Shown: positions 4,451-59,680, counted from the stretch's first letter. The stretch is DNA of 64,000 nt from Moorena sp. SIOASIH (GCF_010671925.1 NZ_JAAHIH010000001.1:869053-933052), one strand, 5' to 3'. Numbers and translations: made by a program. The notes: a model not told the origin generated them from the sequence alone.

Positions 4451-6724
4451 ATGAGTTTGATCAGAATTAACACCATAGAATTAACTATTTCCAATCCCGT
4501 AGCGTGGCCCAAGGCCAATCCCGTAGCGTGGCAAAAGGCCAATCATTCCCACTGCCATCACCAACATCACCAACATCAGCCTAGACCCTTTGATCTTGGG
4601 TTACCAGTGACAACGATTTTGCTGGGATTGACCTTTAGCGTCTTCAGCCAAGCTATCCCTTCAAGAATGGTGCCACTAGGATTAGGAGGAACCACAGCTT
4701 TAGCCCAATCAACTCAGGATGATAGGGGAAGGAACCTGGATCGTACCATAGAAAGAAAATTTTTGTTTGTAAACCCAGTTACCGGAAACGACAGTAGTGG
4801 TAATGGCACCCAGGATTCACCGTTGAAAACTATCACTCAGGCGCTACAAGCTGCCCAGCCCAATACTGTGATTGTACTCTCTAGGGGTATCTACAGCAGT
4901 GACATGGGTGAAACCTTCCCCCTACTTCTGAAACCCGGTATCAAGCTACAGGGCAATCCCCGCACTAGAGGTCACGATGTGGTGATTCGCGGCGGTGGTA
5001 CCTTTGTTAGTGCCACGGCTGCTAGTCACGATGTCCTAATCGTAGGTGCTGACCAAACAATTATTTCTGGCGTAACCCTTAACAATACTAATCCAGAAGG
5101 TTATGGTTTGTGGCTGGAAGTCGGTTCGGTTTTAGTGGAAGACAATACCTTAACTGGGAATAGCAAAAGCGGGATTGCTGTGGAGGGAAATAGTACACCA
5201 ACAATTCGCAGTAACTACTTCTACAAAAATAAAGGCAATGGCCTCAGCATTTACGGAACCTCAAACACTCAAGTGGATGACAATGTATTTGAAAATAATG
5301 ACTTAGGAATTCTGATTGCCGAAAACGTTGCACCCCATATCGTTAATAATCGCATCACTGGCAATAGAAATGGGGTAGTGGTTGAAACCAATGCTCAACC
5401 ATTTTTCCAGAATAACCTCATTGAAAATTCCCAACTGGATGGATTAGTCCTCAAGGTGGGAGCTAATCCGGATTGGGGAAATTCACCAGAATCAACAAAC
5501 AATACATTAAACAATAAATTAAACAATATATTTCGAGGGAATGGGCGGTTTGATATTAACAATCAGGACTCTGAGCCTACTGTGATCGCTTTTGGTAATC
5601 AGCTAGAAGAGGAAACTAACAGTGAGGTTAATTCAGGGGAAACTGAAAACGATATCATTCAAGAGTCGGAGGTTGAAACACCAGCTGTTAGTAAACCAGC
5701 TGTTAGTAAACCAGCTGTTAGTAAACCAGCTAGTGCTCCTGATGCTTCTGACAACCAAGCCGTTGTCATGGCAGAAAACTCTAATCACTCACAGAAGACT
5801 AAGCCTAATTCTCAGGAGAATCCAACCACCCCCAGCCAAGTCGTTCCATCCCAACCACCTGCCGAGAAGGAACCTACAAAGGAACCTACATCTGCTCAGG
5901 TCTCAGCAGCTTCATTTCCCGTTCCATCGAGTTTGGAGTCTCAGCCATCTACCTCGACTGATAACATCGGCAAAGACGCAGCACTAAATAATTCTGCCAG
6001 TACTGAATCTTCTAGACCAGCAGCAAGATCCCAAACTCAGAGTCAGGAAACCTCTGAAACCCAACAGCCTTCTGATCCTAGGACTCAACGTTCACATTCT
6101 GAACCCCTGACACCCCTAACTCTGAAAGTTATTCAAAACCAGGAGCAGTCCTCTTTTGAGGAACCAACATCTCCACCCAAACCAGGAGAGGATTCTAGCA
6201 GTTTTGCTCCGGCTTCACCGTCACAGGAAGTGATTGATGCGTCAAGTGACAGCTCAAAACCAACACCGGAAGCACCCTCGACTGAGGACGTTGACGTTAT
6301 GGTGTCAATGTCTAGTCAGATCAGTACACCGGTTAATCAAAATACTAGTAATCAAAATACTAGTAATCAAAATACTAGTAATCAAAATACTAGTAATCAA
6401 AATACTAGTGCTAGCTCTAATTCAGGTAGCTCAATTCCAGTGTTTTCTACAACTACCCAATCAAACTGGCAACAAAGGGTACCTCCAGGGAATAATCCTA
6501 CTTCAGCTCTACCCAGTCGGGGTTACCGGATTTTGGTAAATGCTGAGAGTGAGCAGCAACAAGATTTAATGCGATCGCTAATTCCCGATTCTTTCCTGAC
6601 CTCCTTTGAAGGAAGAACTGTGATGCAAGCGGGATTGTTCACAACCCTGGAAAATATTGATCGGGTTCTGAAATTACTCAGTAGTTATGGTTTGAGCACC
6701 ACTATTGTGCCTCTGAATTACTGA
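4451..6724 (+). CDS. secreted right-handed parallel beta-helix (DUF1565-like) protein with Pro/Ser/Thr-rich linker and C-terminal SPOR-like domain
   Basis: Repeated NxxxGNxxxGI beta-helix units. Low-complexity linker with in-frame 15-nt repeats (PAVSK x3, NQNTS x5). C-terminal ~75 aa resembles a SPOR peptidoglycan-binding fold. The first ~30 codons overlap a CCCGTAGCGTGGCC repeat, so the start is uncertain. Confidence 0.55.
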   Translation: MSLIRINTIELTISNPVAWPKANPVAWQKANHSHCHHQHHQHQPRPFDLGLPVTTILLGLTFSVFSQAIPSRMVPLGLGGTTALAQSTQDDRGRNLDRTIERKFLFVNPVTGNDSSGNGTQDSPLKTITQALQAAQPNTVIVLSRGIYSSDMGETFPLLLKPGIKLQGNPRTRGHDVVIRGGGTFVSATAASHDVLIVGADQTIISGVTLNNTNPEGYGLWLEVGSVLVEDNTLTGNSKSGIAVEGNSTPTIRSNYFYKNKGNGLSIYGTSNTQVDDNVFENNDLGILIAENVAPHIVNNRITGNRNGVVVETNAQPFFQNNLIENSQLDGLVLKVGANPDWGNSPESTNNTLNNKLNNIFRGNGRFDINNQDSEPTVIAFGNQLEEETNSEVNSGETENDIIQESEVETPAVSKPAVSKPAVSKPASAPDASDNQAVVMAENSNHSQKTKPNSQENPTTPSQVVPSQPPAEKEPTKEPTSAQVSAASFPVPSSLESQPSTSTDNIGKDAALNNSASTESSRPAARSQTQSQETSETQQPSDPRTQRSHSEPLTPLTLKVIQNQEQSSFEEPTSPPKPGEDSSSFAPASPSQEVIDASSDSSKPTPEAPSTEDVDVMVSMSSQISTPVNQNTSNQNTSNQNTSNQNTSNQNTSASSNSGSSIPVFSTTTQSNWQQRVPPGNNPTSALPSRGYRILVNAESEQQQDLMRSLIPDSFLTSFEGRTVMQAGLFTTLENIDRVLKLLSSYGLSTTIVPLNY

Positions 6725-7204: not shown

Positions 7205-7830
7205 GGCGTTGACACTCCCCGGTCTAAAGACACGGGGATTCTTTGTTCGCAGACTCGACTTGCTCAACCAGGCCGGAACCAGGAAAAGTAGAGGTCAAAT
7301 CTCCCAAAGCGTTTGGATTTAAGATCCAGGTTCCGACGTGCCCCGCCGTACCCAAGGCTTGTTTAAGGATGTTGTTCGCGTAGCGTCGGCTTCGCCGAAT
7401 CGCGGCGTTATGATCTCTATCCAATTGACATCCACACTTACAGGCGTGAGTTCTAGTTGATAGGGATTTTTTAACAACTTCGCCACAATTAGAGCAATTT
7501 TGGCTTGTATAGGCAGGATTAACTGCAATAGTTATCTTGCCAAACTTGGTGCCAAAGTGCTCCATCCATTTCCTAAATTGATACCAACCTGCATCGTTAA
7601 TAGACTTAGCAAGACAATGGTTCTTTGCCAGATTCTTGACTCTCAAATCTTGCCTTACGGCACGCTTCGCGAACGTAAGCGATCAAGTCGTTAGACCGAA
7701 CTACGCAACGCGCCAGTCTCTTGGCGTGTTCTATGCGCTTCGCGCAGGCTACGCCAACACGTTGCCTACTTATTTTGAGATGTTGTCTCCCTAATCTATT
7801 AACCGCTTTCTTGCGAATTGATGTTTTTTG
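7205..7830 (-). pseudogene. tnpB: 5'-truncated tnpB (IS200/IS605-family) remnant; intact ORF portion 7224..7646
   Basis: The 140-aa ORF is ~80% identical to the C-terminal RuvC-III/Zn-finger part of the full-length TnpB at 58403..59599. Nucleotide similarity continues out of frame to ~7830. A right-end-type hairpin sits at 7215-7243. Confidence 0.7.
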
Positions 7831-8725: not shown

Positions 8726-9039
8726 GTGATCAGCATTCCAGATAGATGGGCTGAACTAGCGCACATTGAAGCTCTCCCCTAGGGAGTAGGTTTGAGGACT
8801 TAATCGGGGCTGCAACGCCACATCAGCCGAATAGCTAACTTACTTTATGGCGCGCTTTTCTGGTTTCAGCCCAAGATATCTGTTAATTTGAGAATGCTAT
8901 CACCAATCCGCTACATTTGTAAAGCTGTCGTGCTTTAGGATAATGTGGCGATCGCTATCAATAGTAATGGCTCCCTCATTCTTGAACTTGGTGACCAATT
9001 ACTAAACCTCAGCAAACCTGATCAAATCGGGTTTTCCCT

Positions 9040-9292
9040 GAGTTTTCAGATTGGTCAAGCTCACCTCTGTTGGTGCGCTTTCACGCTTGTCGGGAAACCC
9101 GACCGGGGTCGCACCGCAAATGGTAAACGCTATCAAGGTCACGATACCCTGGGGTGCTCGCCAGCTCCAGGCTCTATCGCTTCTGATTAAACAGGTGATG
9201 AGTTAATTTAGTGAAGCCAGTGTCAGAAGCCTAACAAGCTTTGATAGCCGAGCGAGGCACACTTTACCCTCAACGGGAGTAAACACAAAACC
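9040..9292 (+). ncRNA. putative IscB omega-RNA scaffold (guide expected at the 5' side)
   Basis: In IscB elements the omega-RNA is encoded directly 5' of iscB. This region has nested stems (9072-9115 GGTGCGCTTTC...TCGGGaaaCCCGA...GGGTCGCACC). The 81-aa ORF 8945..9190 is probably non-coding. Confidence 0.4.
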
Positions 9293-10582
9293 ATGTGTAA
9301 TTACGTCTTTGTTTTAGATGCAAGCCATAAACCCCTCAACCCCTGCCGTCCCGTTACCGCCAGGAAGCTGTTGACGGCTGGGAAGGCGGCTGTATATCGC
9401 CGTTACCCTTTCACAATCATCTTGAAAAAGCAGGTAGACGGCTCAGCTAAACCGATGTCCCTCAAGATCGATCCTGGCTCCAAGATTACTGGTCTAGCTG
9501 TTGTGTACAGTAATCAGGTGGTGTGGTCTGCTGAAATCGAACATCGTGGCTCCAAAATCAAATCAGCTCTCGACTATCGTCGAGGGGTTCGCCGTTCCCG
9601 TAGAAAGAGGAAATGCCGTTACCGAAAGCCACGTTTCAACAACCGGAAACGCCCAGAAGGTTGGTTGGCTCCGAGCCTACAACACAGAGTGGCAACCACT
9701 ATGACCTGGGTGCTGAGATTGATGAAACTCACCGCCATTGGTTCGATATCCCAGGAGCTAGTCCGCTTTGATACCCAAAAGCTCCAAAATCCGGAAATAT
9801 CTGGCATAGAGTATCAACAGGGGGAGCTGATGGGCTATGAAGTGCGGGAGTACTTGTATCAGAAATGGGGTCGCCAATGTGTCTACTGTGGGGCGAAGTC
9901 TGTCAAGCTAGAGGTGGAACACATAATCCCAAAATCCAAGGGGGGAACGAATCGTGTCAATAACCTCACCCTAGCCTGCCATCGGTGTAATCAGGCCAAA
10001 GGAAATCTTGATGCTCGGGATTTTTTATCGGGGAAACCCCATGTCCTAAAGCGGATTTTAGGTAGAGCAAAGCAACCACTATTAGATGCGGCGGCGGTCA
10101 ACTCCACCCGTTGGCAACTTTACCTTTGCTTGAAAGAAACTGGATTGTCCGTAGCAGTAGGAACTGGTGCCAGAACCAAGTACAACCGTATCAAGCTGGG
10201 ATTACCCAAGGGTCATTGGGTGGATGCCGCCTGTGTCGGGGAAGTGGCCACATTGAAGATTGTAACCAGACAGCCTCTTTTAATCAAAGCGATGGGTCAC
10301 GGTTGTCGTCAGGTAATACAGATGGACAAATACGGCTTTCCTCGCAAAGGGTACAAACCCAAGCATCCTGTGAAGGGATGGAAAACCGGGGATATCGTTA
10401 ATGTGGTAGCTGGGAAGAATGCTGGATTAAAAGGGGTTCGCATCAAGACCGTCAGAGCCAAAGGAAATTTTGATCTAATCGGGGCTGATCACGGTGTCTC
10501 CAAGAAGGTCAACAGCGCATCTCGCAACTACATTCAATGTGTCCATCGTCAGGATGGGTATTATTATAGTTTTGCTAAATGA
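9293..10582 (+). CDS. iscB: IscB, OMEGA RNA-guided nuclease (Cas9 ancestor; RuvC split by HNH)
   Basis: PLMP-like N-terminus (KPLNPC), RuvC-I IDPGSKITGLAV, Arg-rich bridge helix RRGVRRSRRKRKCRYRKPR, HNH CVYCG...EVEHIIPKSKGG...NLTLACHRCNQAKGN, RuvC-III GHWVDAACVG, and a C-terminal TI-like domain. 429 aa. Confidence 0.85.
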   Translation: MCNYVFVLDASHKPLNPCRPVTARKLLTAGKAAVYRRYPFTIILKKQVDGSAKPMSLKIDPGSKITGLAVVYSNQVVWSAEIEHRGSKIKSALDYRRGVRRSRRKRKCRYRKPRFNNRKRPEGWLAPSLQHRVATTMTWVLRLMKLTAIGSISQELVRFDTQKLQNPEISGIEYQQGELMGYEVREYLYQKWGRQCVYCGAKSVKLEVEHIIPKSKGGTNRVNNLTLACHRCNQAKGNLDARDFLSGKPHVLKRILGRAKQPLLDAAAVNSTRWQLYLCLKETGLSVAVGTGARTKYNRIKLGLPKGHWVDAACVGEVATLKIVTRQPLLIKAMGHGCRQVIQMDKYGFPRKGYKPKHPVKGWKTGDIVNVVAGKNAGLKGVRIKTVRAKGNFDLIGADHGVSKKVNSASRNYIQCVHRQDGYYYSFAK

Positions 10583-10741
10583 TAAGTAACTTTGATGAGC
10601 TTTTTTGTAGGAGGAGCAAGATCGATGTTACCTCTGAGTCATTGTCCTTAACCTGCCTACCACTAAATTGCCCCTTAATTACTTTAATAAGTATGTCAGT
10701 ATGACGTAGAAGTATGAGCTATGAATGATCAAGGATGAAGT

Positions 10742-11800
10742 ATGAAGATCGATGTCACAGATGAGTCATTGTCCCTATCTCCCCTACCGCTAAAACGCCC
10801 TTTATTAATGGTTGGTCACGGCACTAGAGACCCCGATGGGCGTCAGACTTTCCTTGATTTTGCCCAGACCTATCAAACCTTGAACCATTCTCGACCAGTA
10901 GTACCTTGTTTTTTAGAACTGACTGGTCCAACTATTCAACAGGGAGTAGAGAGTTGTGTCCAGCAGGGTTATACAGAACTCACTGTATTACCGATTTTAC
11001 TGTTTGCAGCTCGCCACAATAAATTTGATGTTACTAACGAGTTAGACCGGGCCAGGGCAAAATATCCCCAAGTCAAGTTTCACTACGGGCGTCATTTTGG
11101 AATTACTACGGGAATTCTGGATTTATGGCGGCAACGGCTTGCCAAACTTGACCAACCCCAAGCAGAGTTACCCGTTAGCCAATTGAAGGGTCAAGCTTCC
11201 AATCTAGAACCTTCCACAAAACAACCTTTACCCTTAAGAAAAGACACAGTACTTCTATTTGTTGGTCGTGGGTCGAGTGACCCTGATGCTAATGGTGATG
11301 TCTACAAAATGGCTCGCATGCTCTGGGAAGGCAGTGGCTATAAAACTGTGGAAACCTGCTTTATTGGCATTACCCATCCTCGGTTAGAAGAAGGGTTCCG
11401 TCGCGCCCGACTCTACCAACCTAAGCATATTATAGTACTTCCTTACTTCCTATTTACCGGGGCTTTAGTAAAAAAGATTTTTGAGATCACAGCTCAGCAG
11501 CAGAAACTTTATCCAGAGGTTCCCTTGACCTGTTTACCAGAAATGGGGATTCAACCTCAGCTGCTATCTGTGCTCAGGGACCGAGAAATCGAGGCTCAGT
11601 TAGGGCAAGTGCAGATGAATTGTGAGATGTGTAAGTTCCGGCTAGCAGCGATTGATAATGGTGCTGACAACGGACACTCCCACCACCATCACCACGGGCA
11701 TGACCATCACCACCACCACTCTCACCAGCATAATCACAATACCCCAGATCCCTATCAAGATTTGGAAAAATACCACCAGCGTATTTGGCAAGCACCCTAG
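10742..11800 (+). CDS. cbiX: sirohydrochlorin cobaltochelatase, long form CbiXL with His-rich tail and MxCxxC Fe-S motif
   Basis: Duplicated CbiX chelatase halves ([10 protein letters not shown] / [10 protein letters not shown]), MNCEMCKF, and a C-terminal [17 protein letters not shown] tail. Confidence 0.8.
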
Positions 11801-13931: not shown

Positions 13932-14504
13932 AGCGTTCCCCAATTGTGGAATGATTAAAGGTAATCGGTAATTGGTAATGGGTCATGGGTAATTTGTAAC
14001 TGACCCAACTCTACTTGATATCCCAAACGATAGTCAGCAATGCCCTGGTCAGTGCTGGTAAGGGCAGCATGTGCGTAGGGCCTAAGCTGAGGACTCTTGC
14101 TCTGGCCTTGAAATATTAAGATATATTAAATTGACATATTAATTGACATATTCTAAGAGACCCCTGCTAAAATTAGTTGGTGGGTCAAACCCCACATACC
14201 AGAATTGGTATTCAATGCTATAATGTCGAACCTATCTTCTGATCTCGATTTAATCACCTGCTTTGAGGCGATTTGCTAGCAACAAAGCCGCCCTCTTCAG
14301 TAAGCAGCAAGACTACCGCAATTGAACAATCCCTATCGTAAAGCTTGAGTCAGGCTCCATTTGTTGGAGATTCAAGCTCCATCTCTTGATGCAAAGCGTG
14401 AGTAGGGGTTTATCCCAAGACCGCTTAGGTGCGCTTTCCGTGATGGCGAGCAATCCCTCGCCATCACGGGTCGCACCTCTGCATCCCTTTACCCAATTTC
14501 TTGC

Positions 14505-17512: not shown

Positions 17513-18223
17513 GATGGGAAAACTCTGAACGAAGGTTGTCTGAAAGTCAGCGTTATAGGTGGCTTGGTGGAGATTTATCAGTACAACTATGTTCTGTCTA
17601 TTGGGGGATAAGCGAATTTCTCTGATCGAATATTTCCTGATAGCTTCACGGTAATTGTTTAGTTTACCTAGGGTGAGTTGGCGATAATTGTAATTAATCA
17701 CTAGCTGCATTGATGCCCGGTCTATATTAGACATTCCTCCAGATAAAACCGAGGGAATATAAATTTGTTCTAAACGAATCTCTAGTGGGTCTTTTTCTTT
17801 ATCCACCAATACCTTAACTGTTTCAGTGCCATTGGGTTGAATGGAACGCTCGATAATTGGCAGTTTTAGTCCTACTTTTAGTTGATTGAGTCCTAAGCTC
17901 CGTCTTATTCTTTGGGTTTTCCTGAGTAAGCTATCTTCAGCCTCTTTAGGAGTGAGATTGGAATCCGAGTAGTTATAGTTAGTTTCTAGACAACCCTTCT
18001 TGACACAAGCGTTAGTGGCTACATCGACAATTTGGATTTTGGCGGTAGGAACCTTTGTGACATGGTTTCTAGCACTTTCCAGATAAATATAGCTGCGGCT
18101 ATCTAGGGAAAAACCTGACAATCGACGATTGGTTTTGACAATAAGTGCTAATCCCTCCTCCCCAAGGAATAGTAGAAAGAAGCTAGCAACCAACAAACTT
18201 GAATATAAATAAAAGCGTTTCAT
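17510..18223 (-). CDS. hypothetical secreted protein (signal peptide)
   Basis: N-terminal hydrophobic leader [16 protein letters not shown]. No identifiable domain. Confidence 0.45.
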
Positions 18224-18324
18224 CCGACTTCCCTGATTTTTTAACCAGTGATGATGTTTGTCTGGAGTATAGCGTTTCCTAGTCTAATCAGGTAGATGGT
18301 CTAGTCAGGTAAGCTGTTACTAAA

Positions 18325-18741
18325 TCAAATTACTTTAAAATCAGAGATAGTCTCAATCCACACCCTTGCTCCACATTTGAGGGGATCATCGGGGCGATAC
18401 ATGACTCTACATGGTCCATTGACTTCCACGGTATGACCGTAAATATTCTGAGCACCCCGTTTTACGGTAATCACAGGGTTGCGCTCCCCGGTCTTGAGAT
18501 TGTTGCGAATTACCCTCTGGTTAACGTGAATCACAGCTTTAGTGTACTCTCTGCGCTTTGACCAATTCCGCTTGGGACCGCGAGTGCCAGGAGTGACTAC
18601 TGGCATGCCATCAAACAGAGGAATCACCCAAGTTCTACCCACTTTATAGGCTCCTTTAACTCTGCCTTTGCTCAGAAGGTAACGGACGCGAGTGGCGGAA
18701 ACACCTAGTAAATCAGCGGCTTGTGCGGTAGAAATCATCAT
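18325..18741 (-). CDS. helix-turn-helix (MerR/excisionase-like HTH_17) protein with uncharacterised C-terminal domain
   Basis: AADLLGVSATRVRYLLSKGRVKGAYKVGRTWVIP is a classic HTH_17. The basic C-terminal ~80 aa has no recognisable family. Confidence 0.55.
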   Translation of the reverse strand: MMISTAQAADLLGVSATRVRYLLSKGRVKGAYKVGRTWVIPLFDGMPVVTPGTRGPKRNWSKRREYTKAVIHVNQRVIRNNLKTGERNPVITVKRGAQNIYGHTVEVNGPCRVMYRPDDPLKCGARVWIETISDFKVI

Positions 18742-18937
18742 GGGGAGTTAACCATTGCGTTAACGATACTGTTATATTAACATAATTTTGGATAAGATGC
18801 AAGGAATGAGATTTTAGGTATTAATTACTAGGTGTAGTCAATTTGGTGAGCAGGGAACAGGGAACAGGGAACAGGGAACAGGGAACAGGGAATAGGGAAA
18901 AAATTCTGTATAGTGCGATCGCATGATTTGAACTCAC

Positions 18938-19127
18938 CTCAGTTCCAGGTTTCCAAAAAACTATTGCATTAGCGCACCGATAAGTCCAGTGGGTGCCGAT
19001 ATCTTTGGCTAATAGTATTAATAACTAGGACAGTAGGAGTGCTGGCATTCCAGGCATTACCCTAGTTCCAAGTTTCCAAAAAACTATTGCATTGGCGCAC
19101 CCATAAGTCAAATGGGTGGCGCTATAG
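18938..19127. repeat. two ~66-bp direct repeats (TTCCARGTTTCCAAAAAACTATTGCATTRGCGCACC..ATAAGTC..TGGGTG), each with an internal hairpin
   Basis: Copies at 18938-19008 and 19062-19127, upstream of the HTH gene at 18325..18741. Confidence 0.85.
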
Positions 19128-20201: not shown

Positions 20202-20381
20202 CAGCTGACCGCTGAATGCTTACAATAAAACTTGTTAATTGTTAATGGTTTTTAAATTAACACTTAACAATTAGGTGCGACCCGTGGCGAATTTAATTCG
20301 CCAAGGTCAAGCGCACCTTTAACAAGTTAGATCGAGAGAGTTGGTAATTTGTATTACAAGGATAATCTAGCCCTAGAAAAA

Positions 20382-36272: not shown

Positions 36273-36760
36273 AAATAAGGGAGTAGGGAGTAGGGAGTAG
36301 GGAGTAGGGAGTAGGGAGTAGGGAGTAGGGAGTAGGGAGTAGGGAATCGGGAATCGGGAATCGGGAATCGGGAATCGGGAATTAAGAATTAAGAATTAAG
36401 AATTGGGAATTGGGAATCGGGAATCGGGAATCGGGAATAGAAATTATCACAATTTATTTAGGTTCCCTATAACTTTCAACTTTGAACTTTCAACTTTGAA
36501 CTTTCAACTTTCAACTTTCAACTTTGAACTTTCAACTTTGAACTTTCAACTTTCAACTTTCAACTTTCAACTTTCAACTTTCAACTTTCAACTTTCAACT
36601 TTCAACCTTCAACTTTCAACTTTCAACCTACTCTCAACCTTCAACCTTCAACCTTTCAACCTTCAACCTTCAACCAACCTTAAGCCTTCAACCTACTTTC
36701 AACCTTCAACCTACTTTAAACCTTCAACCAACTTTAAACCTTCAACTAACTTATACTTTT
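36270..36760. repeat. 490 bp of consecutive heptamer arrays (GGGAGTA, GGGAATC, AAGAATT, CAACTTT/GAACTTT, CAACCTT)
   Basis: Direct reading. ORF 36403..36843 is an artefact of the arrays. Confidence 0.95.
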
Positions 36761-44145: not shown

Positions 44146-44721
44146 TCAAGACATATGAAACCAGGCGGTCAATGCTACGGCCAAGGCATCTGCTAAATCA
44201 TCTGGTTTGGGGATGGTGTCTAAGTTTAACTCCCGCATAACAGCCTGCTGAACCTCATATTTATCCGCATTACCATATCCTGTCAAAGCCTGTTTAATCT
44301 GACCCGGTGTAAACTCTACCATTGGAACTTCATGTTGTGCTGTTACTAACACCACAACACCCCGTGCCTGAGCTACGGAGATCGTAGTACTCATACGGTA
44401 GAAAAAAAGTTTTTCAATCGCCACCAGATCCGGTTGGCAGTGTTCCAGCAGGGTGTGTAAATCCTCGTAAATCGTACACAGTCGTGAGCCGTAATCAGTC
44501 TTGGCAGGGGTTTGGATGATGCCAAAATCTAGCAACTGCAATGGTTCAGGGGTTGCCTGTATTGGTGACTGGCTAGAACGCTTTGCCACTCCTAAGGAGC
44601 TTTTTGTGTTTCCTGACTTACTAATTTGGGTTGTTTGGCAACTAATTGCCCCAAAACCTAAAATAGCTAGTCCTGGGTCAATTCCCAAAATTCGCTTTTC
44701 CATCTGCCTCACTGCAGTCAA
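44146..44721 (-). CDS. ruvC: crossover junction endodeoxyribonuclease RuvC
   Basis: [17 protein letters not shown]-terminus and downstream catalytic Asp/Glu pattern. Length includes the cyanobacterial insertion. Confidence 0.8.
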
Positions 44722-45318
44722 TCCCTGTCCAGTCTAATAACTAGATTAGATTAATGGTGTTAGTGCTATCATCCCTAATCCCTAGTGCTATCATCCCTAA
44801 TCCCTAGTGCTATCATCCCTAGTACCTAGGCAAGCGTTCCCCATTAAGTCATGAGCTGTAAGCAGCTACACTTGTCACAGGAATCACAAAAGTCTGGTGT
44901 AGCTGACTAATTGGGATTATTCTCTTTCACCCCGTATTTTTTGGGGTTACGCGACTACTCTCATACCCTAAATGGGAACTCAACCGACCTCACCGCTTTC
45001 CGCATATCGACGGGTAAATTCTGATCATAACGTCTAGGTACCGGATATTGTATTAATCACACCTTAGCCTAATTATCTGAAACTGTCGTGATCAGTACCA
45101 GCTTCATGGTGAATTCACCATTGAGGTGCGACCCAAGGGCGCGAGCAATCCCTCGCGCCCTTGGAGGCGCGCACTTTGATCAGTAATATCAATGAAAACC
45201 GCTATACCTGAAAGGTGAGCGGCTGTCTGAATCAAGCGCTTTTCACACGAATGTTTGATTAGGCGAAGAAAGTACCAATCTGACAGGCACTTCCGGAGCC
45301 TTACCCGTTCCTCACTAC

Positions 45319-46767
45319 ATGCATCGCCTCCTTGTCAAGTGCTGGAGTTCGACCAGCCATGTCTATCCGGCTTTTGTAGTTACCATACTCAGTGTAGTTA
45401 TGTCCTCAATCAGTCTTTTCAAAAGAGCTCTACGTACCCTACAAAATGAATCGAGAGGTCGAATTCCTCAGCGGGTCAACCGTTGGTTTAAGTGGTTAGC
45501 CCCTGGATTACTGGTGAAGCGTTGGATACTTTTAAGTGCTGGTGGTGTAGTGCTAACAAGTTTGGGATTAGCGATTTGGGTAAAGCTGACCCCAGTTTTT
45601 TACATCATTAAATTCACAGCCCAAGTTTTAGAGAAAATTACCACCATTATTCCTAACCATGTGTCTGGTCCAATTGCGCTGATCTTGGGTCTGGTTTTCA
45701 TCTTCTGGGGGCAAACCCGGACGGTAGGTTCAATTACGGAAGTTTTAAAACCCGACCACGATCGAAAACTGATTGATGTGCTGATGGATCATCGTCGGTT
45801 AAACCGGGGACCGAAAATTGTAGTAGTTGGCGGTGGCACTGGTCTTTCTAGCTTACTTAGAGGACTAAAGGTTTATAGTGCTAATATCACTGCTATTGTT
45901 ACGGTAGCTGATGATGGCGGTTCCAGTGGACGGCTGCGACGGGAAATTGGAGTGCTACCACCGGGGGATATTCGTCACTGTTTAACGGCACTGGCAGACC
46001 AAGAAAAGTTGTTAACCGAACTGTTTGAATACCGTTTTCGAGCTGGTAGTGGTTTAGTCGGTCACAGTTTTGGAAACCTCTTCCTGACCGCAATGAGTGA
46101 TATTACTGGCGATCTAGAACAAGCTGTTGCTGCTAGTTCTCAGGTATTAGCAGTGCGAGGAAGAGTGTTGCCAGCTACCCTAACTGATGTCAGCCTTTGG
46201 GCTGAATTAGCTGATGGACGTCGCATCGAAGGAGAGTCTAATATTACTGATGCTCGGGGAGTGATCAAAAAAATTGGTTGTACTCCCGAACATCCACCTG
46301 CTTTACCAGCAGCACTCAAGGCAATTCAGGAAGCAGATTATATTATAATAGGACCCGGTAGCCTCTATACCAGCATTATTCCCAATCTGTTGGTGCCAGA
46401 AATTACCGATGCGATCGCAGCTTGCTTGATACCCCGCATCTACGTTTGTAATATCATGACCCAGCCAGGGGAAACCGATGGATATAGTGTCTCTGACCAT
46501 ATAAAAGCCATTGATAAAGCCTGTGGTAAAAGGCTATTTAACGCGGTACTTGTGAATCGAAAATACCCCTCAGCTGGGTCACTGATTAAGTATGCTCAAG
46601 TTAAGTCTCATCCAGTATTTCTAGATCGAGAAGAAACTTCTAAATTAGGGCGTCGGATTGTAGTGACCAATGTAATGTATGAAGATGAGGAAACTCATTT
46701 AGTGCGGCACAATTCTGAAAGGCTGGCACGGGTTTTATTACGGTGGTATAGTCGAGCACATGCTTAG
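45319..46767 (+). CDS. YvcK/CofD-like (UPF0052, gluconeogenesis factor family) with N-terminal membrane extension
   Basis: [18 protein letters not shown]...[14 protein letters not shown] motif block. Confidence 0.8.
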
Positions 46768-51439: not shown

Positions 51440-52870
51440 ACTACCCCGGCCTACTTCGTTGTTCGCGAAGCGTGGCCTACGGCCAGGCCGGGGCTTCCAG
51501 CTTCACGGAAGAACGCCTTAGCTTAGACGGGCGTCCTCGCTTTGGTCTTACTTCTTCGACCCTGGCGTTGACCTCCCCCGTCCCAGAGGAGGATAGCATT
51601 CTGATCCCTTCTGCCCTAATATTCTTGGCCGCATTACCGTCTCTATCGTGGTGAGTTCCGCAACTTGGACAAACCCAAGTCCTTACATCTAGCGGCAACT
51701 CCTTGATACGGTAATGACAACTAGAGCAGGTCTTAGAGCTGGGGAACCACCGGTTTATTTCTACTAAAACTTTCCCTTCTTTTTCGCATTTATAGGAAAG
51801 GAAGTTTACAAAGGTTCCCCAGCCTAGATCAGAAATTGCTTTAGCTAGTTTGTGGTTACGAACCATGCCCTTGACGTTTAGGTTTTCGACTACCACTACC
51901 TGATTCTGGTCTACAATTTTTCTAGATAGTTTGTGCAGGTAGTCTTGGCGGACATTTCCAATACGTTCATATACCTTAGCTACAATCTTACGAGCCTTTT
52001 TGCGTCCACTGCTGCCCTTCTTCTTTCGGGCTGCAATGCGTTGTTTTTTGGCTAGTTTTTTCTCGGATCTATCTATAGGCTTGGGATTGCCAAATTTAGA
52101 GGTCTTTTCGCCGTCATAGGTAATAGCAAAATCCTTGATACCCAAATCAATCCCTATCACCTTTCCCTTCGTTGATGGCTTTACACTATCGGATTCGTAT
52201 TCCATCAAAACAGAAGCGTAATATTTGCCAGAAGGTGCTTTGCTGACTGTTACAGTTTTTATTTCCCCATCTAGTGGTTGATGAATTACAGCCTTGACAA
52301 CTCCTAATTTTCCAGGGAACTTTAGGCAATCACCCACCTGTTTAACATTTTGGGGATACTGAATTGATTGGCGATGATGATACGATTTAAATTTGGGATA
52401 TTTAGCTCTACCTTGGCCTATTGGCCACGCTACGCGAACAAAAAAGTTTTGATATGCACGACTAAGGTTTAGACTCACAGATTGCCAGACCTGGGAGTAA
52501 CAATCCTTTAGCCATTCAGTCTCCTTTTCTTTCTTGAGTTTTGGAAGCATAGAGTTGAGTGCAGATTGTTTCAAGCCTTTGCCAGTTTCCTTGTAAGTTT
52601 CTATGCACTGATTCAAGGCATAGTTCCACCACCAGCGAGCACATCCAAAGTGCTGGGCTAGTATCATTACTTGTTCTTGTGTGGGATAGATTCTGACTTT
52701 GACGGCTTTATGTTTCACTGCACTCAACCTTTTTATCGACCTGGATTACTATTATATAAGTTTTGTATTAAGACGTCAAGGTATAAAGTCAATTTTCTGG
52801 CTCGCTATCCATCCCCAACCTACTTGGCCGTAGGCCACGCTACGCGAACGTAGAGGTTGGGGAATTCCGC
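51440..52870. mobile_element. tnpB-only IS200/IS605-family element (IS1341-like)
   Basis: Terminal hairpins: RE 51445-51492 CCCCGGCCT...AGGCCGGGG and LE 52815-52862 CCAACCTAC...GTAGAGGTTGG. Both ends carry the inverted motif CGCGAAGCGTGGCCTACGGCC. Confidence 0.7.
51477..52727 (-). CDS. tnpB: TnpB (OMEGA RNA-guided RuvC-like nuclease, OrfB_IS605 family)
   Basis: N-terminal VRIYPTQEQ...ARWWWNYAL, RuvC triad (IGIDLGIKDF, ENLNVKGM, DRDGNAAKNI), and Zn ribbon CSSC...CPSCG. Confidence 0.85.
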   Translation of the reverse strand: MSAVKHKAVKVRIYPTQEQVMILAQHFGCARWWWNYALNQCIETYKETGKGLKQSALNSMLPKLKKEKETEWLKDCYSQVWQSVSLNLSRAYQNFFVRVAWPIGQGRAKYPKFKSYHHRQSIQYPQNVKQVGDCLKFPGKLGVVKAVIHQPLDGEIKTVTVSKAPSGKYYASVLMEYESDSVKPSTKGKVIGIDLGIKDFAITYDGEKTSKFGNPKPIDRSEKKLAKKQRIAARKKKGSSGRKKARKIVAKVYERIGNVRQDYLHKLSRKIVDQNQVVVVENLNVKGMVRNHKLAKAISDLGWGTFVNFLSYKCEKEGKVLVEINRWFPSSKTCSSCHYRIKELPLDVRTWVCPSCGTHHDRDGNAAKNIRAEGIRMLSSSGTGEVNARVEEVRPKRGRPSKLRRSSVKLEAPAWP

Positions 52871-53087: not shown

Positions 53088-53534
53088 TTAATTTTTATTG
53101 GCAGCAAATACGTTAACCAATTTGACCACTTGTGCGGGTCTATGATAAAATGTCCAATGCTGCGGAGACTCTGTTATAGCGTCAGTGTTGGATATTTTCA
53201 GCGTTTTTGTGATGTCTTCACTATTGGAAAACGTGGCTAAGTAAGTTGTTATTTCGCTAGCGCTGTAAGTCACATAATCATCATCATTTTCTATTTTGCC
53301 GTTTCTATCTCCTGGAGCATCATTTTTCAAAAGAAGAAATGAGATATGGTTAGGGGGAGCAATAAGTTCCACATATTGCGTCGGCAACAGATCACGGTCA
53401 CAAAATGAATGTAGAGTTAAGTCACATATTTCCATCTCAGTTTCACTACTTGCCAGGGCATTCATCACATTTAACGTTAGCACTAGCATACAGGTTACTA
53501 ACGTTACAAAACAAGTTTTGATCATTTTTTCCAT
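53088..53534 (-). CDS. hypothetical secreted protein
   Basis: Signal peptide (MEKMIKTCFVTLVTCMLVLTLNVMNALA). No domain. Confidence 0.4.
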   Translation of the reverse strand: MEKMIKTCFVTLVTCMLVLTLNVMNALASSETEMEICDLTLHSFCDRDLLPTQYVELIAPPNHISFLLLKNDAPGDRNGKIENDDDYVTYSASEITTYLATFSNSEDITKTLKISNTDAITESPQHWTFYHRPAQVVKLVNVFAANKN

Positions 53535-58329: not shown

Positions 58330-58520
58330 TTTTGCTTATTCCCACCCTCGGGATTTTTGACACTCCCCGTCCTAGAAGAACGGGGATTCTTTAATCAACG
58401 AGTCAGCGTGGCTCTTCCAGACCGGAATCAGGAAGAGTAGAGGCTGATTCTCCTAAAGCGTTCGGATCTATGATCCAGGTTCCGGTATGCCCTACCGTAC
58501 CCAAGGCTCTTTTTAGAATA
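58330..58520 (-). ncRNA. putative TnpB omega-RNA (reRNA) overlapping the tnpB 3' end and RE hairpin
   Basis: By analogy to characterised TnpB systems. The conserved 3'-end hairpin is shared by all three copies. Confidence 0.3.
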
Positions 58521-59680
58521 TTAATGGCTGCATTATGGTCGCGATCCAACACACACCCACACGAGCAAGTATGCGTTCTGGTTGATAGCGATTTTTTGAC
58601 AACTTCACCACATTTTGAACAGTTCTGACTAGTATAAGCAGGGTTAACGGCTATTGTTTGCCTGCCAAACTTTTGTCCAAAATATTCCAGCCATTTTCTA
58701 AATTGATACCAACCTGCATCATTAATAGACTTGGCAAGACAATGATTTTTTACCAAATTTTTTACCCTCAAGTCTTCGTAAGCGACCACGTCGTTAGAGT
58801 GGATTACGCAGCGCGCCAGTCTCTTGGCGTGCTCTTCACGCTGCCTACTTATCTTAAGGTGTGTTCTACCTAGTCTATTAATGGCTTTTTTGCGATTGAC
58901 TGAGCCTTTCTTTTTGCGAAAAACCCGACGTTGATAAAACTTAAGCAGTTTCTCACCCTTACGATAAAACCTTGGATTTGTCTCTACACCTCCCTTGGAG
59001 TCGGTATAAAACTCCTTAAGTCCAACGTCTAAACCAACGTTGGTGTGCGAAGGCTCTAAAGGTTTGCTAATATCAACTTTGATACAAAACTGAACATAAT
59101 AGCCATCCGCTCGGCGCACTAATCTAACTCGTTTTATCAGCGTCTGATCGTAACGCCATAACTCCCAGGTTCCTTTTAGTTTTAGTTTCCCAATACCTTT
59201 TTTGTCTAAAAAATTTATTGATTTAGTATCGGGGGATAGTTTCCAGCCAGATGTTTTATACTCAACTGACCTAGAAAACTTCTTAAACTTAGGATATCCC
59301 TTTTTACCAGGGACTTGTTTTTTACATTTATCGTAAAATCTAGAAATTGAGTTGTAAGCTCTTTCAACTGAAGCTTGACAGGCATGAGAATTTAAGGCTT
59401 TAACAAAGGGATACTCAGACCTGAGCCACGTATTATGACGATACAAGTCTTTTTGTCCTATACCTTTATTGTCCATCCAGTAACGGATGCACTTGTTCCG
59501 AACAAACTGACCGGTGCGAATCGCCTCATCAATCGCAGCATATTGAGTTTTATTCCCTTTGACCTTAAATTCTAAGACTATCATTTTGACGTGGAACAAC
59601 TCTACGTAATATTATAGCACGAAAAAAATAAAGCCGTCCTTCTAGGACGGGGCTTGAGGCCCAAATTTTTGGTCAACCAC
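58354..59680. mobile_element. tnpB-only IS200/IS605-family element, full length
   Basis: RE hairpin 58362-58389 (CTCCCCGTCCTAGAAGAACGGGGATTC) and LE hairpin 59632-59652 (GCCGTCCTTCTAGGACGGGGC). Same ends as the mini element at 24163-24696 and the truncated copy at 7205. Confidence 0.7.
58403..59599 (-). CDS. tnpB: TnpB (RuvC-like RNA-guided nuclease)
   Basis: RuvC triad VGLDVGLKEF / EDLRVKNL / DRDHNAAINI, and Zn finger CSKCG...CSCGC. Confidence 0.85.
   Translation of the reverse strand: MFHVKMIVLEFKVKGNKTQYAAIDEAIRTGQFVRNKCIRYWMDNKGIGQKDLYRHNTWLRSEYPFVKALNSHACQASVERAYNSISRFYDKCKKQVPGKKGYPKFKKFSRSVEYKTSGWKLSPDTKSINFLDKKGIGKLKLKGTWELWRYDQTLIKRVRLVRRADGYYVQFCIKVDISKPLEPSHTNVGLDVGLKEFYTDSKGGVETNPRFYRKGEKLLKFYQRRVFRKKKGSVNRKKAINRLGRTHLKISRQREEHAKRLARCVIHSNDVVAYEDLRVKNLVKNHCLAKSINDAGWYQFRKWLEYFGQKFGRQTIAVNPAYTSQNCSKCGEVVKKSLSTRTHTCSCGCVLDRDHNAAINILKRALGTVGHTGTWIIDPNALGESASTLPDSGLEEPR

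Follow-up and report, generated by a model that had tools for sequence, protein, structure and literature searches.

Four hairpins that stand on one outer stem and carry different tops are scattered over 64,000 nt of the genome of Moorena sp. SIOASIH (NZ_JAAHIH010000001.1:869053-933052, the whole stretch analysed, hereafter the window), one of them within the segment shown above. They raise the question of what such structures are: RNA motifs selected in place, ends of a larger insertion sequence, or small repeats that move. We consider it quite probable that they belong to a family of small, mobile, REP/SDR-like non-coding repeats of Moorena and other cyanobacteria, and that the copy lying within an IscB omega-RNA gene is an insertion.

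Four hairpins on a common foot

All four hairpins reported by the initial annotation were present where it had placed them. They share the foot GGTGCGC...GGGTCGCACC, and the element is oriented, reading 5'-(A/C)GGTGCGC...GGGTCGCACC(T/G)-3'; in this direction c0 and c1 lie on the + strand and c2 and c3 on the - strand. The c0 copy is a 52-nt unit (9066-9117) in the gene of an IscB omega-RNA (HEARO) and consists of the leader TCTGTT, a hairpin at 9072-9115 and the trailer GC. The other three are free-standing: c1 (14425-14478) has the leader TT and a hairpin, AGGTGCG..CGCACCT (14427-14478), with a perfect 13-bp inner stem and a CAATCC loop; c2 (20273-20320) has the leader AA and a hairpin at 20273-20318 with the inner stem GGCGAAT-TAA-ATTCGCC; and c3 (45124-45178) has a hairpin at 45124-45176 with a 13-bp inner stem.

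Searching the window, which is cyanobacterial in character (34 HIP1 sites, 43% G+C), for GGTGCG-N20-50-CGCAC returned seven strand-hits against 0.15 expected, and none of 100 shuffles reached seven, contradicting a chance origin of the hairpins. Folding compared with shuffled sequences gave z-scores of -4.8 to -8.8 for the three free-standing copies, depending on the strand (for c1, dG -42.5 and z -8.3), and a less stable fold for c0 (z -3.1). A covariance model of the family, derived from 33 distinct variants, made exactly four significant matches, namely c0 to c3 in the same orientations (E from 1e-10 to 3e-5), and found no other credible copy in the 64-kb window; c2, the commonest variant of the family, was the best match (59.1 bits), and c0 was matched at 9073-9114 on the + strand with 46.6 bits. 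A weak match on the - strand at 18913-18977 (10.5 bits, E ~3) reads GTGCGCT-N53-CGCAC around a HIP1 site; the region has local repeats, which are seen in the M. bouillonii PNG locus L020 too, and the match is probably unrelated to the hairpin family.

The inner stems had been described as differing completely, but c1 and c3 have a 16-nt apex in common, GCGAG-CAATCC-CTCGC, which is flipped relative to the foot. Likewise, one free-standing copy had been assigned to an insertion sequence; this copy, c3 (45124), actually lies between the housekeeping gene ruvC and a CofD-family gene.

A dispersed family with an invariant foot and a variable apex

When 185,579 species genomes were scanned for GGTGCGCTT-N20-40-GGGTCGCACC, at least 120 loci matched, most of those listed being in Moorena (M. 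producens 3L, M. bouillonii PNG and several MAGs). A minority of the matches listed belong to Prochloron, Crocosphaera, Symploca, Dactylococcopsis and a halophilic cyanobacterial MAG, in which the same foot carries unrelated apices, and the remainder of those listed come from G+C-rich genomes and look like chance matches in coding DNA; about 80 of the 120 matches listed are cyanobacterial and have hairpins. Okeania and Limnospira seem to be without the foot. In cyanobacterial loci totalling 651 kb the covariance model found 105 copies, which, together with the four copies in the 64-kb window, suggests some hundreds of copies per 8-9-Mb genome, as an extrapolation from loci and window and not a genome count. 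One variant is represented by 16 identical copies. Most copies are single rather than doublets, with tandem arrays in the loci L084, L094 and L136 and occasional inverted dimers (L034/L035, 36 nt apart). The array in L136, a 99.9-kb phage contig from IMG/VR with capsid genes, comprises three head-to-tail units of the c0 subtype (2119-2263, 51-nt period), which makes phages a possible vehicle of spread. It sits among structural genes (major capsid, DUF4054, DUF2213) of what is a phage or prophage contig, also with HIP1 sites.

The unit measures ~46-54 nt and consists of a leader of 0-6 nt and the hairpin, to which the c0 subtype adds the 2-nt trailer GC. The foot is an outer stem of 6-7 bp, GGTGCG/CGCACC, of which the outer 5 bp are invariant across the family and the closing pair co-varies, being A..T in 58 copies and C..G in 29; its junction with the apex is asymmetric (CTTTCC or CTTGACC opposite GGGT). 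The apical stem-loop above it varies freely, and the same foot bears a dozen or more apical stems unrelated to one another. The inner pairs have undergone 72 double-sided changes, compared with 29.4±4.1 in column shuffles (0 of 500 reaching the observed value) and at most 17 in controls with slid partners. Between them, the family scan and this covariation support what the initial annotation had put forward, a dispersed repeat family that conserves structure.

The perfect pairing of the inner stems, also claimed there, is common but not universal: in 37 of the 102 family copies the apical stem is disrupted, its 3' half AATTAAATTCGCCACGGGTCGCAC being kept and its 5' arm replaced. Since several of these broken-apex variants are nonetheless multi-copy and insertion-polymorphic (L056, L062, L011 and L070), it is probably the foot, and not the apex, that is the functional part, and the apex looks like a passenger. 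Where apical stems are perfect, palindrome mechanics such as templated repair and loop flipping may be part of the reason, instead of an RNA being under selection; the flipped loop of c1 relative to c3 would fit this.

Filled and empty sites

The two 45-nt flanks of each copy were joined and compared with the fetched DNA by blast. This yielded 55 alignments that span the flank junction, from which 19 pairs were aligned and 11 junctions read by hand. All 11 showed precise presence or absence with no target-site duplication, the inserted unit being either NN+AGGTGCG..CGCACCT (where NN is TT, AA, GT or TG) or C-GGTGCG..CGCACC-G. The left flanks of the 11 insertions had no motif in common, nor was there a conserved target tetranucleotide among them. 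Some polymorphic sites differ by 1-2 nt beside the junction (pairs L023/L032 and L060/L060), and most empty sites are devoid of the flanking direct repeats that slippage needs. Presence and absence alone are compatible with insertion or with precise excision; we read the polymorphism as that of a mobile or recently mobile family.

Two possible targets were considered and rejected. Targeting of hairpin loops did not emerge as a rule, the folds of the empty sites following no consistent pattern, although c0 does sit at a small omega-RNA hairpin. The outer stem could also have been a pre-existing palindromic target, GGTGCGCACC, split by the insertion, for which the splitting of HIP1 by SDR5 is said to be a precedent, but GGTGCGCACC is absent from the window.

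Among the hosts of the insertions are heptamer arrays of the (CTCCCGA)n type, a MITE whose termini are TATAGCAG and further mini-palindromes; c1 itself has inserted into a mini-palindrome that lies upstream of a gene. This second palindrome, module M (14384-14489, + strand, from an alignment of nine copies), reads TCTTGATGCA..GGGGtttatCCC..c1..TGCATCCCTT and runs from TCTTGATGCA to TGCATC. Several copies in M. producens 3L are nested likewise, and a hairpin identical to c1 is present in that genome (L036 4197-4248). Module M without a hairpin was found at another M. producens 3L locus (L060 353-441) and at the c1-orthologous site of Moorena sp. SIO3I8 and SIO3I7 (L121/L122), from which c1 is missing and where the 10 nt adjoining the junction are different as well. 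Module M (TCTTGATGCA..GGGGG-AAA-CCCCC..TGCATC) is in turn an insertion-polymorphic mini-palindrome of ~52 nt: an extra copy, absent from the window, lies in SIO3I8/SIO3I7 ~90 nt upstream of the c1 site (L121, reverse complement ~11560-11620). In M. producens 3L, a MITE-like element (L060, L058, L025, L054 and L071) with the termini TATAGCAG...CTGCTATA and an internal (AGAAGTC)n carries module M with the hairpin, so that the nesting is three levels deep. Within the window, positions 36312-36359 match the joined, CTCCCGA-type heptamer-array flanks of the M. producens 3L copy in L036 and have no hairpin; tandem arrays of this type host hairpin copies in other Moorena loci.

What might move the hairpins

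By analogy with REP/REPIN and IS200/IS605 elements, the foot may be recognised as single-stranded DNA by a trans-acting enzyme of the HUH/Y1 type (a RAYT or an IS200-like protein), which would excise the hairpin unit and integrate it into single-stranded DNA. We propose this mechanism tentatively, at somewhat less than even odds. The window ORFs scanned included no Y1/HUH gene, and tblastn against ~1 Mb of loci with approximate IS200, IS608 and YafM queries, a weak test, found no Y1. As RAYTs are usually single-copy, the absence of one from sampled blocks of ~8 kb says little. To our knowledge, nobody has identified the mover of the very small hairpins of cyanobacteria, which have been known since 2008. 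The window does hold two full TnpB genes (OrfB_IS605 and Cas12f1-like TNB; 51477-52727 and 58403-59599, both on the - strand) and a TnpB fragment (7224-7646, - strand). No Y1 TnpA was found beside the window's TnpB genes, and the ORF at 53088-53534, next to TnpB and suspected of encoding TnpA, was dismissed, having no Pfam match. In cyanobacteria, several subclasses of Y1 (RAYT-like) proteins are accompanied by long REPs (PMC6006769), and REP dimers of this group are found nested within palindromes (PMC3733652).

The hairpins might be true REP/REPIN elements that belong to a RAYT of Moorena, by membership and not by analogy. Like REP/REPIN elements, they are imperfect palindromes that occur in high copy outside genes, are constant at the base and variable at the top and leave no target duplication, they come as singles, occasional inverted dimers and tandem arrays, and both presumably act as single-stranded DNA; moreover, a REP stem of Planctomyces, GGTGCGT/ACGCACC, follows GTAG (PMC6006769 supplement), and five of our copies begin GTAG-GTGCGC. 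These five, however, are a small part of the 108 copies in which the four nucleotides before GTGCGC were read (TTAG in 23, CTCG in 14, AAAG in 10, AATG in 7 and GTAG in 5), the hairpin unit contains no CGTC, and a GTAG or CGTC tag is thus absent from ~95% of copies. The unit, at 46-54 nt and with a two-tier stem, also exceeds the typical REP of 20-40 bp, copies are mostly single, with REPIN doublets in the minority, and no RAYT was found, linked or otherwise, in what was a weak search with approximate queries. We hold true membership to be unlikely, if the least unlikely of the alternatives discussed here.

Still more doubtful, to our mind, is a broader reading, namely that the foot, recurring across distant cyanobacteria and in a cyanophage, marks an unrecognised system that mobilises hairpins of less than 60 nt in trans by means of a non-GTAG enzyme and that remodels guide RNAs and proteins. 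A non-canonical HUH/Y1 enzyme, or another enzyme acting on single-stranded DNA, would then read GGTGCGC/GGGTCGCACC and not GTAG; units would insert into genes of structured RNAs, here the IscB omega-RNA; and the hairpin, as the core of a larger palindrome, would enter protein loops in frame.

Insertion versus loss at palindromes

The filled and empty sites could also have arisen without HUH DNA transposition, through deletion or recombination at unstable palindromes or through copying by a reverse transcriptase. Palindromes are prone to deletion, the loop flipped between c1 and c3 is a typical palindrome rearrangement, and a few junctions have the extra 1-2-nt changes described above. The c2 copy bears on this as well. 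It lies in a convergent spacer before an LTXXQ gene, and M. bouillonii PNG has an ortholog (L020 3498-3542) whose 5' inner arm differs; being common to the window and M. bouillonii PNG, c2 is an older copy. The homology between the two genomes stops exactly at the 3' end of c2 on the + strand (window 20318, L020 3542), so that c2 marks the breakpoint of a rearrangement or indel. Yet identical variants stand in many unrelated flanks (witness the 16 identical copies of one), and hairpins occupy different positions within otherwise homologous repeats, both of which require insertion or copying. Slippage would find no direct repeats at most of the empty sites, and the copies have no poly-A, no reverse-transcriptase signature and no target duplication. 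We thus regard loss at palindromes or RNA-mediated copying as an improbable source of the polymorphism, and favour a family of mobile repeats.

Genomic placement and possible roles in RNA

Functional RNA structures selected in place, be it to terminate transcription, to stabilise mRNA or as a regulatory RNA motif, would explain the strong folding and the covariation, as well as the conservation of c3. This copy lies in the divergent spacer between ruvC (44146-44721, - strand) and the CofD-family gene (45319-46767, + strand) and is kept at the orthologous site in six of the six other Moorena assemblies fetched (L126-L131), and hence in seven Moorena genomes, one of the orthologs having exchanged an A-T pair for T-A in a compensatory manner; the window's own c3 has a mutated base in its outer stem (C to T at 45175). 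Secondary roles of this kind are ascribed to the REPs of other bacteria (PMC3733652). The same spacer contains, at 44720-44800 near the ruvC start, a tandem repeat of ~25 nt (..tagggatgatagcact..), with one unit more in the window than in the six other assemblies.

The family as a whole fits selection in place poorly. No copy has a T-tract and none was called terminator-like, and copies are found in every type of spacer and in both orientations: in the fetched loci, 37 are in co-directional spacers (12 in the same and 25 in the opposite orientation), 20 in divergent and 9 in convergent ones. Intrinsic terminators were rejected on these grounds, in agreement with the initial annotation, which had judged other explanations a better fit than simple terminators. 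Copies also occur in ORFs and in phage, no Rfam family matches the hairpins (relaxed thresholds around c1 give chance miRNA-like matches only), and the apical stem is broken in a third of the copies. Finally, presence and absence at homologous sites are more naturally explained by mobility than by a site-specific function. Selection in place strikes us as slightly less probable even than loss at palindromes, while a secondary, exapted role of individual copies is possible.

The family is strongly biased against coding sequence: stop-to-stop ORFs of at least 150 aa contain 13 of 109 copies, though such ORFs cover 69% of the bases. Neighbouring copies have the same orientation in 21 cases and the opposite one in 6 (p=0.006), which is compatible with a strand-specific process, although for pairs more than 300 nt apart the figures are 12 and 4, with p only 0.08; by eye, the orientations along the M. 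bouillonii PNG chromosome form no evident two-domain pattern. Among the copies within genes, one in M. producens 3L forms the center of a ~135-nt palindromic element that lies in frame in a hybrid histidine kinase (L089 ~5200-5340), in the loop that connects the N box with the G1 box in its HATPase_c domain. Similar hairpin-bearing repeats occur twice in frame in a TPR/nSTAND protein of M. bouillonii PNG (L095 3033-3656), and the reading frames stay open across the elements in both loci.

The copy in the IscB omega-RNA

The IscB element hosting c0 (8995-10609, + strand) comprises an omega-RNA at ~8993-9267, recognised by Rfam HEARO, and an IscB ORF at 9293-10582 with Pfam RRXRR and HNH domains. 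The closest IscB (P0001, 91% identical) belongs to Moorena sp. SIO3I8/SIO3I7 (L121/L122), and because that copy occupies a different genomic site, for which the window holds the empty counterpart, the ends of the element could be defined. Aligned over 1,563 bases, the two elements share 92.8% identity, and the sole sizeable indel between them is one of 52 nt, TCTGTT + hairpin + GC, whose boundary is ambiguous by 1 nt (9066-9117 or 9065-9116). The unit entered at a small hairpin that directly follows the 5' pseudoknot strand, between CACC and AAATGGT. In L121, where the omega-RNA has no c0, Rfam HEARO aligns full-length from a P1 at the very start of the element; in the window, the true P1 is GACCAAT (8993-8999) paired with ATTGGTC (9050-9056), and Rfam HEARO misassigns P1 to the inner stem of the inserted c0. 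Free-standing hairpins of the c0 subtype, with the same leader and trailer, were found in Moorena (L109 and L010), Prochloron (L074/L078) and the phage contig L136.

Judged by this comparison, c0 arose when a member of the family inserted, in one lineage, into an omega-RNA gene. A hairpin belonging to the conserved architecture of the omega-RNA (HEARO) was rejected, the homologous omega-RNA of L121 being without it, and a clean 52-nt indel that is absent from the homologue is neither the end of an insertion sequence, as the initial annotation had suggested when it spoke of solo IS ends, nor the source of the family. That the free-standing hairpins are solo ends or PATE-like miniatures of an IscB-carrying IS200/IS605-type element is scarcely credible, and for this window refuted, for although c0 lies in the HEARO region, shares GGTGCGCTTTC...GGGTCGCACC with c1 and supplies what Rfam takes for P1, the SIO3I8/SIO3I7 element has its own P1 at the left end without any hairpin, the covariance model detects no copy in L123-L125, the loci of the outgroup IscB genes, the 120 scan matches listed include none with an IscB gene, and the sequence downstream of free-standing copies is unrelated to omega-RNA.

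The insertion turns the element into a natural experiment, in which an extra 52-nt hairpin in an omega-RNA bears on how much the scaffold tolerates. It is also a warning for annotation, c0 having misled both the initial annotation and the Rfam alignment about where the omega-RNA starts. As for the element itself, in SIO3I8/SIO3I7 it lies (L121 5753-7317) between an HTH_17 and a DUF2259 gene, which are adjacent and IscB-free in the window (18223-18373), and its insertion in SIO3I8 was accompanied by the loss of ~190 nt from the 3' part of the HTH_17 gene. The right flanks of both IscB elements start with GGAG(C/G)AAG, which the empty site contains as well, and this could be a target-adjacent motif.

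Comparison with known systems

The initial annotation had offered REP/PATE-like hairpins or solo IS ends as the best fit, and of these the behavior of a small mobile palindrome of the REP type is what stood. A PATE has two different IS200/IS605 ends, as opposed to the single-hairpin unit found here, and was rejected. The hairpins do resemble the subterminal hairpins of IS200/IS605 elements, in that a hairpin with an asymmetric junction is the likely recognition element and no target is duplicated, and the window holds relatives of these elements (IscB and the two TnpB genes); they differ in being a single hairpin instead of distinct left and right ends, in having no conserved target tetranucleotide and in not deriving from the ends of the IscB element, and no TnpA gene was seen. 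Bacterial MITEs, such as the cyanobacterial Nezha, are small non-autonomous repeats with the terminal inverted repeats (TIRs) of a parent IS and target-site duplications. The Moorena family is likewise made of small non-autonomous repeats, with mutual nesting and in-frame insertion into genes (as the larger element in L089 and L095), but it has no terminal inverted repeats of a parent IS and no duplication at the 11 junctions, and a MITE was rejected.

The closest likeness is to the very small mobile repeats (SDRs) of Nostocaceae, 21-27 nt long, which Elhai et al. 2008 (Genome Res 18:1484) described and which reportedly form hairpins, are non-coding, undergo compensatory changes, are insertion-polymorphic between relatives, are embedded in heptamer arrays and mini-transposons and nest in other elements. 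The Moorena repeats, too, are very small non-coding hairpins with compensatory changes, nesting in heptamer arrays and mini-transposons and polymorphism. Compared by description only, they differ from SDRs in length (46-54 nt versus 21-27 nt), in their two-tier stem and in a distinct conserved foot. They also differ in host, occurring in the non-Nostocaceae filamentous Moorena, in several unicellular cyanobacterial genera and in phage; SDRs of Nostocaceae are cited in PMC5861425 and PMC3116915, and according to PMC5861425 no such repeats had been detected beyond that family. An invariant foot common to different orders and a phage, a dispensable apex and many exact filled and empty junctions without duplication narrow the search for the mobilising enzyme. 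To summarize, the hairpin family resembles a known kind of element, the very small mobile repeats, from which it differs in length, architecture, foot and hosts, and its novelty is modest.
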